A stretch of 45,737 nt of DNA from the NCBI GenBank assembly GCA_021163005.1, contig JAGGXP010000023.1, positions 1 through 45,737 of the forward strand. The letters run 5' to 3'. The stretch's first letter is position 1; every line of letters begins with the position of its first letter. The notes beneath the pieces were generated by a model that was not told the origin of the DNA, did no database searches, and saw nothing but the letters and a program-made list of their open reading frames with translations. This DNA is from Candidatus Aenigmatarchaeota archaeon. Lineage in GTDB: Archaea > Aenigmatarchaeota > Aenigmatarchaeia > QMZP01 > JAFGSV01. The position numbers were made by a program, and so were the translations under genes. Shown here one piece after another: positions 2,835 to 28,575 of this stretch.

Positions 2835-3073
2835 GCCTCGATGGTGTAGTGGCCTAGCATATGGCCCTGTCACGGCCATGACCCGGGTTCAAAGGCACCC
2901 TTTTCCATAAGCATACATGGAAAAGCGCGCTCCGGAAAATACGTTAACAACAAATGAACGGTGCGCAGAGGAGCCGTGTCCGGAAGGGGTATCCATTCCG
3001 CAGGGTTTTGGATGGCAACCTTCTGGAAGAAACTGGCAGACTCTAAAATGTGCTGGAAATCCCGGTCGGGGCG
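2835..3073 (+). tRNA. tRNA-Asp(GTC) with 166-nt intron at 59/60 (2894-3059)
   Basis: GCCTCGA/TCGGGGC acceptor stem, G73, TGGCC CT GTC AC GGCCA anticodon arm. BHB TTCA/TGGA with outer helix GCAC/GTGC. Confidence 0.95.
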
Positions 3074-3941: not shown

Positions 3942-3990
3942 CCCGGGTCTGCCAGGCGCCCCATCCAGGCAGGCCTGGGCGCATTTTTTT
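3942..3990 (+). terminator. GC-rich hairpin followed by a T tract
   Basis: CCCGGGTCTGCC (3942-3953) pairs with GGCAGGCCTGGG (3968-3979), followed by a T run. Confidence 0.6.
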
Positions 3991-4242
3991 AACTTATTTA
4001 AAAACTAAAGTCTACAAATTCTTTTCAATGGGCCCGTAGCTCAGTCTGGCTAGAGCACCAGACGAGTGTGTTGCACGTCGTGCAGCACCTCAGGTGAAGC
4101 TTTTAATGTCATTAAAAGCGTGTTTAGGACCTTCAGAAATCCCGTGCAATGAACACGGCACTGCAAGAGGTTCCGATGACAGAATAAACCTGGGTGTCGC
4201 GGGTTCGAAGGCTCAAGGGGGCTTCGGCAGCTTACACGTGCA

Positions 4243-4421
4243 TGCCCCCTTAAAGCATTATTCCCCGCTTAAGAGGGCCAACGGCAACGGACAGCAACGC
4301 AAGATGACGGCTAACGCAGGATGAGCAAAGCCGTCCCGAACAGGAACGCAATCCGCCTGCATGCACAGGATGGATAAAGCAGGCTTTAGGCACATCTGCC
4401 CCCTTAAAGCATTATTCCCCG
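4243..4421 (+). repeat. 25-nt direct repeat TGCCCCCTTAAAGCATTATTCCCCG (4243-4267, 4397-4421) in tRNA-Lys intron 3
   Basis: Exact match. Confidence 0.95.
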
Positions 4422-4651
4422 TTAAAAGGGAAGAGAAGATGGGGAAAGGGAATGGTGCACAGGTTCCCCAGTAACAATGAAGAAGGAAAGGGGAATCAGG
4501 ACAGCAGCGGAAAGCCGCAAAGGTCGTGCAGGTCGCGCGGCTCGAACACTACGAACAGGAACGCACACCGCCTGCATGAACATAACGGACAAAGAATAAT
4601 CGAACAGGAACGCAATATGACGACTTGAACAGAATGAACAAGTCGTCTTTA
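4288..4651 (+). repeat. four ~49-nt hairpin repeat units (starts 4288, 4337, 4552, 4601) in tRNA-Lys intron 3
   Basis: Leader CGAACAGGAACGCA (exact x3, variant x1), then 4 nt, a 6-bp stem arm and a 17-18-nt loop. Units occur in pairs spaced exactly 49 nt; the 4552 unit lacks its right arm. Confidence 0.9.
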
Positions 4652-4809
4652 AAAGGTATGCACAAAGCAGGCTTTAAGCCGCATTTAAAAGCTGTCCATG
4701 AGCTGGAAATCCTGCCGGGCCCATTTAAGCTTTTGGCGCAAGCGGAAGTGCCGTAAAAGGTTAACTTTAAATAGGCACGAAGCTGTTATAATTGGATTGA
4801 AGTGATAAC

Positions 4810-5202
4810 ATGCAAAGCTCTCACATAGTCAAAGTGGATTCAAAAGGCCGCGTGCTTATCCCCGTTGACATGAGAGCTGATATGAGCATAGCTGACGGAA
4901 CGCACATACTTGTCACACGCGACGAGAGCAACGGACACCTCAGGATGACACCCATACCCAAGGGAAGCATGGCAGAGGTAAGCATGAAGATATGTGAATT
5001 CAGTCTCATGGCATCTGTGGCGGACGCGCTTTCAGGGAATTCCTTCAACATAATAATGAGCGAAAGCAAGCGCATTGACGAAAAAAACACAGAGATAAGA
5101 ATGCTTGTAGACCTTTCGGAAGCTTCCAGGAATATGGACGCGCTCAGGGAAATATTATCCAACATAGAAGGTGTAAATGCCGTTGATGTTGCTGCAAAAT
5201 AG
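4810..5202 (+). CDS. AbrB/MazE-type DNA-binding domain plus ACT-like domain regulator
   Basis: KVDSKGRVLIP N-terminus; C-terminal ACT-like beta-alpha pattern. Confidence 0.8.
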   Translation: MQSSHIVKVDSKGRVLIPVDMRADMSIADGTHILVTRDESNGHLRMTPIPKGSMAEVSMKICEFSLMASVADALSGNSFNIIMSESKRIDEKNTEIRMLVDLSEASRNMDALREILSNIEGVNAVDVAAK

Positions 5203-26445: not shown

Positions 26446-27273
26446 ATGAAAATTGCATACGTGGCGGCGGCTGTCGCGCTATTGCTAGTTATCGGGGGGT
26501 TTGCGGTTTCATTCCAGCCCCAGAAGCCTTTCGTGAAGGCCTTCTACGATTCAGCGCCAAGGGACAATGGCACAATAGATGCGGAAAAGCTCATCCGAAC
26601 ACTTTCCGACGGAAACGCCAACACATACAACTTCCTGATGAGGAGACCGTCTGATTTCGAATCCCTCAAAGAGCTGCTTCCACTCGCTGCTGCCAAAGAC
26701 ATAGACATCTGGGTAACGCTCATACCGCCATCCGAGCTGAGCCCGGAGCAGAGGAACGACCCTGCATACACGGACTACAATGCATGGGCAGAAAAGCTGG
26801 CGAAGCTTTCGCTTGAGCATGAAAACCTGAAGGCATGGAGCATAGACAACGTCGTGATTGACAGCACGTTCTTCACACCGCAGTACCTCGGGTCCATGCT
26901 CGGAAAGGCGAGGGATATAAGCCCGAAGCTCATGTTCATACCGGTCGTCTATTACCAGAACGTGATTTCAGACGGCTTTGCCGAGCAGGCAAAATATTTC
27001 GACGGGGTGCAGTTTTACTACATGCACTTCCCCGGCGGGCCGCCAGCGGAGTCTGATATACTGATGACCCAGCTGCAGGAGCTGAGAAAGAGATTCGGCG
27101 GCATAGTCGTGCTTGGCTTATACGCGACTCCGTGGTCTCAGGAGTTCCCGACAAGCGCTGACTATGTGCAGCAGCTTATAAACCTTGCCAGGCAACATAC
27201 AGACGGTGTGATGATTTACACACTGAATCCGGGAGCGGAAAAATTCGAGGTCATAAGGCAGGAATTCGCATGA
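26446..27273 (+). CDS. secreted/membrane-anchored protein, possibly TIM-barrel glycoside-hydrolase-like
   Basis: N-terminal signal anchor and an alternating beta/alpha pattern (IDIWVTL, AWSIDN, DGVQFYY, DGVMIY); the fold call is inference. Confidence 0.65.
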   Translation: MKIAYVAAAVALLLVIGGFAVSFQPQKPFVKAFYDSAPRDNGTIDAEKLIRTLSDGNANTYNFLMRRPSDFESLKELLPLAAAKDIDIWVTLIPPSELSPEQRNDPAYTDYNAWAEKLAKLSLEHENLKAWSIDNVVIDSTFFTPQYLGSMLGKARDISPKLMFIPVVYYQNVISDGFAEQAKYFDGVQFYYMHFPGGPPAESDILMTQLQELRKRFGGIVVLGLYATPWSQEFPTSADYVQQLINLARQHTDGVMIYTLNPGAEKFEVIRQEFA

Positions 27274-28466
27274 TTGAGATAAGGTTTGACCCCAAAAAGG
27301 GCATATGGGCAGAGAATGAGGACGCAGACAGGCTGAGGAACAACTCCTTCGGAAGACAGGAAAAGGACAAGCTGTGGCTCATGCCGGAAGAGGCGCTCTA
27401 CATTCTCGACCTGATGAACGGCAGGGCTGTGCGTGGCAAAAAGCAGGCGGGATTTGAAGACATCGTGTCCGCTTATGCAGCGAAAGACCCGAGGATACTG
27501 CTAAAATACAATGCCTACAGGGACTGGCGCGACCGCGGCCTTATAGTCAAAAGGGTTGATGACGGGATTAAGGGCAGCAGCAACAGAGCCGGGCATGTGA
27601 AGAAATATCCGTCAAAGGACATGAAGGTGGCAAAAGGCAGGGGGAAAATCCTTTGGGACGATGACTCGGCCATGGGCATCTACACAGCCGCCGACGCCAG
27701 GACGCTGTATTCGGATTGGTGGCTCGGCCAGATAGGCGTTTACAAGCAGGATAGGGGCAGCGTCCTCAAGCTCAATTTCTTCGAGGTCGTGCTGCTGTCT
27801 AAACATTTCGGCTTTAAGGTGAGGAATGCCAGGACGGGAAAGAGCATCACCGCGAAAAGGATAATGGATGAGATATCCAAGCGCAGGGAATTTGCCCGTT
27901 CAATGTACCAGGCCTACGAGGACTGGAGGATGCGCGGCTACATAGTCAAGACCGGCTTTAAGTTCGGCACCCACTTCAGGATTTACTTTCCAGAGGCATC
28001 GCCTCTCAGGGAAACGTCCAACGGAAAATGGATCCACTCCAAGCATGTCCTTCACATATTTCCCAAGGAAGAGAAGTTGCTGATTTCAGAATGGGCGAGG
28101 GCCGTGCGCGTTGCTCATGGTGTCAGAAAGACTTTCATACTGGGTGTGCCGAAGATAACGAAAAAGGATTGTGTGGACTACCCGGCAGACTTTGTGGCGT
28201 TCAGGCGCAAGAAGAAGGGCAAGGACTGGGTGAGGGAGGCGCCGCCGAAGGACAGGCCGAGGTATCTTCTTGCAGACCTGAGCGAGGAAGAGCACATAGG
28301 CGGCATTGAGCTGGCATCGCTTCTCGCCAAGGCAGGGGGCATGAATCTCAATCTCATACTTTCCATAACAGACAGGGAAACTGCCATAACCTACTACGCG
28401 CTCAACAAGATAAAGATACAGGGCGCGAAGTTCGACTACTACGAGATAGAGTGGCTGAGGCCCTGA
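27270..28466 (+). CDS. endA: tRNA splicing endonuclease, three-unit epsilon2-type
   Basis: 398 aa. Duplicated N-subdomain (PEEALY..YRDWRDRG), a full catalytic unit (KTGFKFGTHFRIY, HS, VAHGVRK) and a beta-type C-terminus ending EIEWLRP; inserted loop WWLGQIGVYKQ. Confidence 0.92.
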   Translation: MIEIRFDPKKGIWAENEDADRLRNNSFGRQEKDKLWLMPEEALYILDLMNGRAVRGKKQAGFEDIVSAYAAKDPRILLKYNAYRDWRDRGLIVKRVDDGIKGSSNRAGHVKKYPSKDMKVAKGRGKILWDDDSAMGIYTAADARTLYSDWWLGQIGVYKQDRGSVLKLNFFEVVLLSKHFGFKVRNARTGKSITAKRIMDEISKRREFARSMYQAYEDWRMRGYIVKTGFKFGTHFRIYFPEASPLRETSNGKWIHSKHVLHIFPKEEKLLISEWARAVRVAHGVRKTFILGVPKITKKDCVDYPADFVAFRRKKKGKDWVREAPPKDRPRYLLADLSEEEHIGGIELASLLAKAGGMNLNLILSITDRETAITYYALNKIKIQGAKFDYYEIEWLRP

Positions 28467-28474
28467 ACCGGTAA

Positions 28475-28575
28475 GTGCCTAAAGACGACTTTGTCCACAC
28501 TGCGCATGTCGTCGGTGTGCGTTTCTGTTCGATTTTGTCCGTTCCGTATATGTCGTCGGTGTGCGTTTCTGTTCG
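28475..28575 (-). repeat. two copies of the tRNA-Lys intron hairpin unit (26-nt exact direct repeat at 28506-28531 and 28550-28575)
   Basis: Reverse complement CGAACAGAAACGCACACCGACGAC...GGACAAAGTCGTCTTTAGGCAC aligns with 4337-4393 and 4552-4651. Confidence 0.9.

Follow-up and report, generated by a model that had tools for sequence, protein, structure and literature searches.

Covarying hairpin repeats in a probable 500-nt T-loop intron of a tRNA-Lys(UUU) gene from an aenigmatarchaeal genome

In ARMAN-2 (Candidatus Micrarchaeum acidiphilum), tRNA introns at position 59/60, in the T-loop, are cut by a three-unit epsilon2 endonuclease, as set out in the main text of the report that describes them (PMC3239211; structure 4fz2). 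We describe a related arrangement in a 45,737-nt stretch of DNA, hereafter the window (GenBank assembly GCA_021163005.1, contig JAGGXP010000023.1, forward strand), from a Candidatus Aenigmatarchaeota archaeon, where four copies of a hairpin unit that recurs across the genome very probably lie within a spliced 500-nt intron of an unannotated tRNA-Lys(UUU) gene. The source genome (G000), of DPANN type, is a metagenome bin of 0.95 Mb (945 kb) in 43 contigs, 91% complete; C numbers denote its contigs, other G numbers the genomes of relatives and L numbers loci in relatives. The two systems agree in the position of the intron, the kind of splicing motif and the type of endonuclease encoded (E 1.4e-87 to 4fz2) and both belong to tiny archaeal genomes with heavily disrupted tRNA genes. 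They differ in that the tested 59/60 intron of ARMAN-2 is 13 nt long with a relaxed hBH motif (PMC3239211, main text), whereas the present one has 500 nt and a strict bulge-helix-bulge motif (hBHBh'), and is built from hairpin modules common to other introns and to tRNA flanks. The intron lengths in that main text are 13 nt and 25 nt, and the supplementary tables may hold longer ones.

Similar introns in tRNA genes of differing identity within one genome, as seen here, were also the subject of a case from 2010 (Fujishima et al.) that was read as recent spread, as cited in PMC4090602 and PMC4033280; in contrast, the present family is a modular hairpin repeat with a covarying stem and tandem arrays, which is also found outside introns, in tRNA leaders and trailers and, in other genomes, at gene starts. 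A further known intron case shares with this one that standard finders miss many introns, that gains are repeated and that the insertion sites are splicing motifs, the difference being the defined repeat family that the introns have in common here. Our literature search, which left most subscription journals outside its reach, found no report of T-loop introns built from hairpin repeats.

At the level of the repeat itself a parallel is offered by the bacterial repetitive extragenic palindromic (REP) sequences and REPINs, short hairpins mobilised by RAYT proteins that form inverted doublets and carry a conserved GTAG head. The units described here are likewise short, multi-copy, non-coding hairpins with species-specific stems, a patchy spread and local arrays. 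They differ in the lack of a Y1/RAYT gene and of a GTAG head, the flank being instead a CGAACAGGAACGCA spacer (or GCGTAT in the relative G041), and in consisting of direct tandem units with a strand bias and a link to stable-RNA genes and to gene starts.

The tRNA-Lys gene comprises the following parts (arrows mark the splice junctions):

3997 to 4004, plus strand: TATA-like box TTTAAAAA, 25 nt 5' of the tRNA start, a putative promoter element.
4030 to 4723, plus strand: unannotated tRNA-Lys(UUU) gene with three introns; exons 4030-4061, 4099-4105, 4188-4209 and 4710-4723; the spliced form is called by ARAGORN.
4062 to 4098, plus strand: intron 1, position 30/31, 37 nt; H helix CACC/GGTG, bulges AG↓A and AA↓G, h helix AGAG/CTTT (hand reading).
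4106 to 4187, plus strand: intron 2, canonical position 37/38, 82 nt; h' helix TGTCATT/GATGACA, 3 of 4 pairs formed in the H helix.
4210 to 4709, plus strand: intron 3, T-loop position 59/60, 500 nt, which holds all four units; strict hBHBh' from a motif scan.

The motif of intron 3 consists of a 5-bp h helix (4199-4203/4711-4715), a 4-bp H helix with two G-U pairs (4204-4207/4704-4707) and a 5-bp h' helix (4211-4215/4699-4703), with bulges AA↓G at 4208-4210 and AA↓T at 4708-4710, which gives the 3-4-3 layout. Joined in silico, the four exons, all intact, are called by ARAGORN as tRNA-Lys(ttt) with a canonical cloverleaf. The unspliced gene is missed in the window both by ARAGORN and at Rfam gathering thresholds; an inverted repeat couples 4024-4036 with 4716-4728, and its flanks look like pieces of a tRNA. 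No second tRNA-Lys(UUU) was found in the genome, where ARAGORN reports 7 tRNA genes and the Rfam family RF00005 adds none. A TTTAAAAR box at a spacing of 25-27 nt, read by eye, precedes 7 tRNA genes of the genome. The 500-nt intron contains no open reading frame (ORF) of at least 60 aa.

In relatives the tRNA-Lys orthologs lie upstream of rpoH, and introns 1 and 2 are present in every one that was read. Positions 27-30/40-43 of the tRNA covary among 17 orthologs, the G31-C39 pair is restored only if the 37-nt intron 1 is removed, and the helix of intron 2 is compensated in the ortholog L020 (TG(A)CCAT/ATGGCA). The T-loop insert, on the other hand, ranges from 0 nt in 5 of the 17 parsed genomes through 16-141 nt in 11 to 500 nt in the source genome alone (one further ortholog was left unparsed and stands outside the 17).

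Those parts of the introns that lie in the anticodon region (4092-4123 and 4175-4189) match the exons in conservation across the order. They comprise AGGTGAAGC, GCGTG, GATGACAGAAYAAAC and a hairpin GCTTTTAAT...ATTAAAAGC, in which the anticodon loop is paired with intron sequence and whose loop carries insertions in some relatives; this conservation exceeds the needs of the splice motif. In the window tRNA-Lys and rpoH are separated by a 130-aa MazE/AbrB-type ORF (4810-5202; PF04014, 25.1 bits); in G004 (L015) rpoH is situated ~170 nt past the tRNA, with no such gene between.

The interior of intron 3 is made up of repeat modules:

4243 to 4266, plus strand: module TGCCCCCTTAAAGCATTATTCCCC, copy 1, of direct-repeat family D2; copy 2 lies at 4397-4420, and the module occurs in 8 of 8 family-A T-loop introns (see below).
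4288 to 4336, plus strand: unit 1, spacer and hairpin GACGGC/GCCGTC (covariance model, 49.6 bits).
4337 to 4391, plus strand: unit 2, spacer and hairpin GCCTGC/GCAGGC (covariance model, 73.8 bits).
4392 to 4551, plus strand: non-unit repeat modules separating the unit pairs, 91% identical to C23:9792-10018, in another T-loop intron.
4552 to 4679, plus strand: nested composite of outer unit 3 around unit 4 (4601-4654), seen in the sequence, the covariance model and the fold.

Each unit begins with a leader CG(A/G)ACAG(G/C)AACGCA, exact matches to which are found at 4288, 4337, 4552 and 4601, followed by 4 nt and a 6-nt stem arm; the four units with this leader and these stems had been recognised in the original prediction, which was made from the letters of the window, and they stand. 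Allowing one mismatch, the window has 6 leader matches against 0.08 expected (none of 100 shuffles reaches 6), the two additional ones being on the minus strand at 28518-28531 and 28562-28575. Three units are closed locally, by GACGGC 4306-4311/GCCGTC 4330-4335, GCCTGC 4355-4360/GCAGGC 4379-4384 and GACGAC 4619-4624/GTCGTC 4642-4647, with loops of 18, 18 and 17 nt. In the remaining one GCCTGC at 4570-4575 is without a local partner and pairs with GCAGGC at 4667-4672, thereby enclosing the next unit. This nesting, also proposed earlier, is seen in the minimum-energy fold of 4552-4679 (z -2.39; none of 200 shuffles folds equally well), and the composite is found again in three other copies (C9, C23 and the C24/C23 join), while a copy on C25 is without the outer 3' arm. 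The earlier description of an array holds for the repetition of the units but not for its continuity: they form two pairs, 4288-4391 and 4552-4679, with 160 nt of other modules (4392-4551) between them, and Tandem Repeats Finder reports no array at this position. In the consensus unit a 6-bp stem (G-N-C-N-N-C) closes a loop of 17-18 nt in which ...C-W-G-R-W-U-G-R-A-Y-A-A-A is conserved; a U-rich tail and the spacer complete it. Readings of the loop as a K-turn or K-loop, an H/ACA element or a start codon were dropped by eye, the defining boxes being absent.

Single hairpins are thermodynamically not unusual (z-scores of -1.42, -0.96, -3.47 and +0.88 for the four units, and -1.22 for the two-unit stretch 4288-4391), and folding energy alone is weak support; the evidence for pairing is therefore covariation. 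When 48 distinct copies from this genome and its relatives were aligned by a covariance model, 95.8% of 260 stem cells were paired. Three of the six stem pairs (positions 2, 4 and 5) are altered on both sides, in 48 cells, and positions 1, 3 and 6 are constant G-C, C-G and C-G. The copies attain a covariation score of 0.404, compared with 0.127 for shuffles, none of 500 of which gets as high, and controls using slid partners stay at or below 0.12; this alignment was fitted to the structure and so favours pairing. Among 22 hairpin matches from relatives, picked by a model that rewards pairing, all 132 of 132 cells pair, and four of six pairs show compensation. Thus the compensatory change of the stems that had been predicted is borne out, and the stems do not decay uncompensated in the additional copies.

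The units belong to a family that extends across the source genome. A BLAST search with the intron gave 52 matches and a profile 44, while a covariance model of the 55-nt unit (R1), a search that the original prediction had itself proposed, returned 33 matches at E ≤ 0.01 and 40 at E ≤ 1. These fall into 16 loci on 14 contigs: six are T-loop introns (C4, the tRNA-Lys gene of the window, C23, the C24/C23 contig join, C25 and C28), four are tRNA 5' flanks (C1, C9, C13 and C29), four are tRNA 3' flanks (C2, C21, C28 and C42), and two are without a nearby tRNA (C11 and 28477-28575 of the window). The unit shares the strand of the tRNA at all 14 of the 14 tRNA-linked loci, and the hairpin lies 13-14 nt 5' of three tRNAs. 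Eight T-loop introns, which we term family A, all begin with GGCTCAAGGGGG and are related at their 3' ends; their lengths are 115, 176, 199, 220, 277, ~460, 495 and 500 nt, and each contains from 0 to 5 units. Their closing helix h' covaries, with GGCTC/GAGCT replaced by GGCTT/AAGCT in C15. The intron of ~460 nt was joined from the contig ends C24:1-306 and C23:1-297, since these overlap by ~125 nt inside a T-loop intron. The end of C22 repeats the sequence preceding the C25 intron. The repeats cause contig breaks in the assembly. A separate 40-nt module (CCGCTTCGCGCAAAAGCGTCAACGGAAAA and its complement) occurs three times in tandem at C4:10490-10570 and twice in a tRNA-Val intron at C18:13618-13790.

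Two of the 5' flanks are of a special kind. At C1:12754-13092 and C29:17689-17965 the tRNA is preceded, at a distance of 240-310 nt, by an extra copy of its first 15 nt (GGGCCCGTAGCTCAG). Repeat modules, units among them, fill the space between the two copies and at C29 are found upstream of the first copy too; at C1 the first copy follows a canonical TATA-like box, and the complete tRNA begins at the second. A hand check of a possible D-loop intron bounded by the two copies found no bulge-helix-bulge in any register, and the duplications are accordingly read as leader insertions. They look like the att-type scar of an insertion that would give a long 5' leader. As regards a miniature inverted-repeat transposable element (MITE), which would have terminal inverted repeats and target-site duplications, no terminal inverted repeats are seen around the units, and the 15-nt duplication flanks larger composite inserts. 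In Caldiarchaeum subterraneum a tRNA is also disrupted with duplication of its 5' fragment, but what is inserted there is an element of 1.8 kb that carries a gene for a recombinase (PMC3293823), whereas here it is non-coding repeat DNA.

The tRNA-Lys gene is one of many such genes in this genome. Numerous T-arms read GGTTCRAA and then continue into foreign sequence, and a bulge-helix-bulge motif scan, from which many chance matches were removed by eye, yielded 15 introns at 59/60 with G+C-rich T-stems. When the 59/60 intron alone is removed, ARAGORN calls a tRNA that ends with the spliced 3' exon for 12 of the 15 genes, 7 of the 12 needing no further intron; two of the other three give no call, and the call at C25 is a different upstream gene. 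With introns allowed, ARAGORN reports only 7 tRNA genes in the whole 945-kb genome; most of its tRNA genes are concealed by introns that are non-canonical and multiple. The window itself contains a second such gene, and also a splicing endonuclease and two more units:

2835 to 3073, plus strand: tRNA-Asp(GUC) with a 166-nt T-loop intron (2894-3059) from the motif scan; ARAGORN calls tRNA-Asp(gtc) after removal of this intron alone.
27270 to 28466, plus strand: three-unit epsilon2-type tRNA splicing endonuclease (EndA), 398 aa; matches PDB 4fz2 over residues 14-398 (E 1.4e-87) and Pfam PF01974 and PF02778.
28477 to 28575, minus strand: two further units with no adjoining tRNA, on the strand opposite the EndA gene (covariance model, 73.6 and 16.7 bits), lying 11 nt past the EndA stop codon.

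The tRNA-Asp(GUC) gene is unannotated and directly follows the 5S rRNA gene (2662-2775); its intron belongs to a different module family, which begins GGCACCCTTTTCC and has hairpins TTTT-NNNN...NNNN-AAAA with interchangeable stems. A second EndA-like gene is present at C1:4652-4924, the ligase RtcB is encoded at C26:12783-14051, and an RNase P RNA candidate scores 71 bits, under the Rfam gathering score of 84.

In light of these connections, we lean towards the view that the units are the cargo of a 500-nt bulge-helix-bulge intron, a non-autonomous structured repeat that has inflated an intron which is spliced out. The context absent from the original prediction, namely the tRNA intron and the genome-wide, tRNA-linked repeat family, is decisive here. 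The pre-tRNA would be transcribed from the TATA-like box 25 nt upstream, and the conserved ends of the intron would pair with each other and with the T-arm to give the 3-4-3 motif. Both bulges could then be cut by the epsilon2-type endonuclease, whose gene lies 23 kb downstream, and the exons ligated by RtcB, with the intron being discarded, probably as a circle. Local folding of each unit would keep the insert compact, so that the splice-site helix could still form. The repeat itself, a non-autonomous, REP-like element, may persist in tRNA introns, leaders and trailers because it does no harm there, and could multiply in these places by tandem duplication and by exchange among intron copies, growth that would have enlarged this intron to 3.5 times the largest ortholog. 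We prefer such a structured repeat because the sister introns are mosaic, turnover at the orthologous site is fast, copy numbers are patchy and unequal, and close relatives lack it. The sequences establish the gene and its motif, the enzymes, and the repeat family with its covariation and distribution; we infer the splicing, the mode of spread of the repeat and its lack of a cellular function. The REP- or MITE-like option allowed for at the outset comes close to this reading in respect of multi-copy covarying hairpins; RAYT, inverted doublets and the GTAG head of REP elements are absent.

Several observations weigh against this interpretation. A search of the 91%-complete genome for a Y1/RAYT transposase (PF01797) gave 0 matches; four tyrosine recombinases are encoded, none of them linked to the repeats, and no enzyme that would mobilise the repeat was identified in the genome. 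Neither terminal inverted repeats, for which the window was inspected, nor regular target duplications were seen. The minimum-energy fold of the whole intron misses the splice helix, and because that helix is not recovered the fold was not used as evidence. The loop sequence is conserved over four families of the order, and elsewhere the hairpin lies on the same strand 17-38 nt upstream of Pfam-confirmed genes (among them those for ribosomal proteins S4 and L1, RNA polymerase subunit N, a KH-domain protein and EndA) as well as 9-50 nt 5' of tRNA 5' ends. This placement at gene starts fits a cis-acting RNA element better than junk, and the strict strand bias beside tRNAs suggests a constraint at the RNA level. 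Finally, the assembly is a bin in 43 contigs that the repeats break.

The distribution of the hairpin in the order bears on these points. With model R1, the best match among the 13 genomes that share the family of the source genome has E 0.18, and weak hairpin matches came up in 13 of 90 other genomes of the order. A hairpin-only model (R2), built from 22 R1 matches in other genomes, is positive in 35 of the 90, with up to 41 copies per genome: 25 of 47 genomes in family f6, 8 of 23 in f2, 1 of 1 in f3, 1 of 1 in f5, 0 of 5 in f4 and 0 of 13 in the family of the source genome. Including the latter genome, the hairpin is thus present in 36 of 91. At 20 loci of G041 read by eye, it is closely followed, on its own strand, by a start codon or the 5' end of a tRNA, and a TATA-like box is found 24-50 nt before it, so that the hairpin would be at or near the 5' end of the transcript; at L154 of the same genome it forms tandem arrays, three copies with a 47-nt period, whose spacer resembles the leader of the units in the source genome. 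Eight of 12 downstream ORFs submitted have a Pfam family (S4, RNA polymerase subunit N, L1, KH, DUF5320, HTH, M17 peptidase and EndA), these ORFs having been chosen on the sense strand, which makes them no fair test of orientation bias before genes. An orientation test based on an ORF heuristic was too noisy to be usable: real genes lost out to spurious antisense ORFs, and the Pfam-confirmed S4 gene at L100 was missed. Two congeneric species (L100 and L109) both retain the hairpin ahead of S4, the copy at L106 (G077) is on the strand of the EndA gene and 38 nt before its start codon, and five loci of other genomes place it 9-50 nt 5' of tRNA 5' ends. Other sites are a D-region insert and a T-loop intron of tRNAs (L080 and L103) and positions adjoining tRNAs (L084 and L112). 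At L082 (G034:C42, position ~1500-1700) a 16S rRNA gene region contains the hairpin, and a conserved GTGCCAGCCGCC...GCGGTAATAC stretch downstream appears to be split by a ~38-nt insert, which suggests that rRNA introns may also carry the family.

These data give some weight, albeit tentatively, to the alternative that the hairpin is a functional cis-acting RNA element that binds a protein of RNA processing or translation and whose normal place is the 5' end of transcripts; the tRNA-linked copies could recruit or hold this protein on pre-tRNAs, or the circles excised and closed by RtcB could serve as a sponge. A loop conserved in 35 of 90 other genomes and in four families is what such an element would show, as are the positions before the start codons of S4, L1, RpoN, the KH protein, EndA and others, where TATA-like boxes stand 24-50 nt ahead of the hairpin, the positions before tRNA 5' ends (five loci elsewhere, three here), the sense orientation of 14 of 14 tRNA-linked loci, the retention before S4 in two congeneric species and stem changes that are always compensated. 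Yet the family goes undetected in the 13 closest relatives, which would be surprising if the element were needed, its copy number varies from 0 to 41 among genomes, and mRNA leaders of the source genome contain 0 copies; further, no candidate partner is known, CsrA is not encoded, and the choice of sense-strand ORFs leaves orientation before genes without a fair test. The hairpin is an undescribed structured motif absent from Rfam, and given its placement before real genes it may have a regulatory role.

A more elaborate version, which we consider rather improbable, would make the hairpin the leader of a regulon comprising tRNAs, rRNA, ribosomal proteins, RNA polymerase subunit N and EndA, recognised by a putative RNA-binding protein, with tRNA introns of this genome giving rise to circular multi-hairpin RNAs that titrate it. 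If true, such circles would be an archaeal counterpart of bacterial sponge RNAs arising as a by-product of tRNA splicing, and through them the translation apparatus would be expressed in step with tRNA output. Bacterial sponge RNAs of the CsrB/RsmZ type are arrays of short hairpins, which the present units resemble, some loops even carrying CAGGAUG; they differ in that GGA is not conserved, CsrA is not encoded and the context is archaeal and intronic. A CsrB-like sponge in the strict sense was rejected: PF02599 has 0 matches in the genome, of the four units in the intron only two carry CAGGAUG, and GGA is not conserved in the family.

It is very unlikely that the 500 nt are a spacer between separately transcribed pieces of a recently split tRNA gene, whose halves would be joined in trans after internal boxes, CCCTTAAAG (4246-4254 and 4400-4408) and ATTTAAAAG (4683-4691), had started hairpin-led transcripts. 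Split and recently split tRNAs are known (PMC3218864), TATA-like boxes precede the first unit of several arrays by ~25-45 nt, the hairpin elsewhere is near the expected 5' end of transcripts, and the ends of the intron could pair in trans equally well. Against this, a start from ATTTAAAAG at ~4717 would be inside the 14-nt 3' exon and would therefore leave no intron part for the motif; this box is not conserved in the C4 sister intron, and CCCTTAAAG only poorly resembles the TTTAAAAR boxes found before tRNA genes of this genome. As for a promoter of its own for each piece, the intron contains weak TATA-like strings. Since the halves are colinear on one strand, splicing in cis is the simpler reading.

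We likewise give little credence to the view that the tRNA gene is dead or that the locus is a chimera assembled from repeats. The bin of 43 contigs, the contig breaks at repeats (with the ~125-nt overlap of C24/C23 in another such intron) and the fragmentation of public contigs over the region would be expected of a chimera, but the four exons are intact and give a canonical cloverleaf, the motif is perfect, the putative promoter box stands where it should, the genome yielded no other tRNA-Lys(UUU), and seven sister introns have the same ends. A search of public sequencing runs for this stretch listed no RNA run; in four public DNA runs the short contigs are broken by the repeats, at junctions that correspond to other mosaic copies (for example the C25 arrangement) and not to alleles of the locus. 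Short contigs listed from run X1, which may be the source sample, span 3950-4235 and 4306-4800, leaving 4236-4305 outside the listed pieces, and 6 of the 8 listed pieces differ nowhere from the window.

Least probable are C/D-box or H/ACA guide RNAs or a CRISPR-like array processed from the intron, a largely refuted reading: although GAUGA-like and ACA strings occur in the loops and archaeal tRNA introns can host C/D-box guides, no Rfam family matches at E ≤ 10 save one chance lncRNA, the aligned units show neither a CUGA box spaced as in guides nor a pocketed H/ACA hairpin of 60-70 nt, no free guide is left because the variable part is the self-paired stem, spacer and loop being the conserved parts in a reversal of CRISPR design, and the loops match neither phage records (blastn) nor viral contigs (exact 30-nt pattern). 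The guide array of the original prediction is not supported, and the comparison of the loops with viruses that it had suggested gave no match. On balance the guide-RNA, CRISPR-like, CsrA-type, split-gene and artefact readings are weak.

The origin and growth of protein-spliced archaeal introns is an open question, for which a structured repeat carried within a tRNA intron offers a concrete handle: one repeat occurs in six T-loop introns, four leaders and four trailers, sister introns hold 0-5 copies, and the insert ranges from 0 to 500 nt among 17 orthologs. An intron ~38 times the length of the tested 59/60 intron of ARMAN-2 also probes how much cargo the epsilon2 endonuclease tolerates. Moreover, because standard finders see only 7 tRNA genes here, annotation and completeness estimates of such archaea would be badly off.

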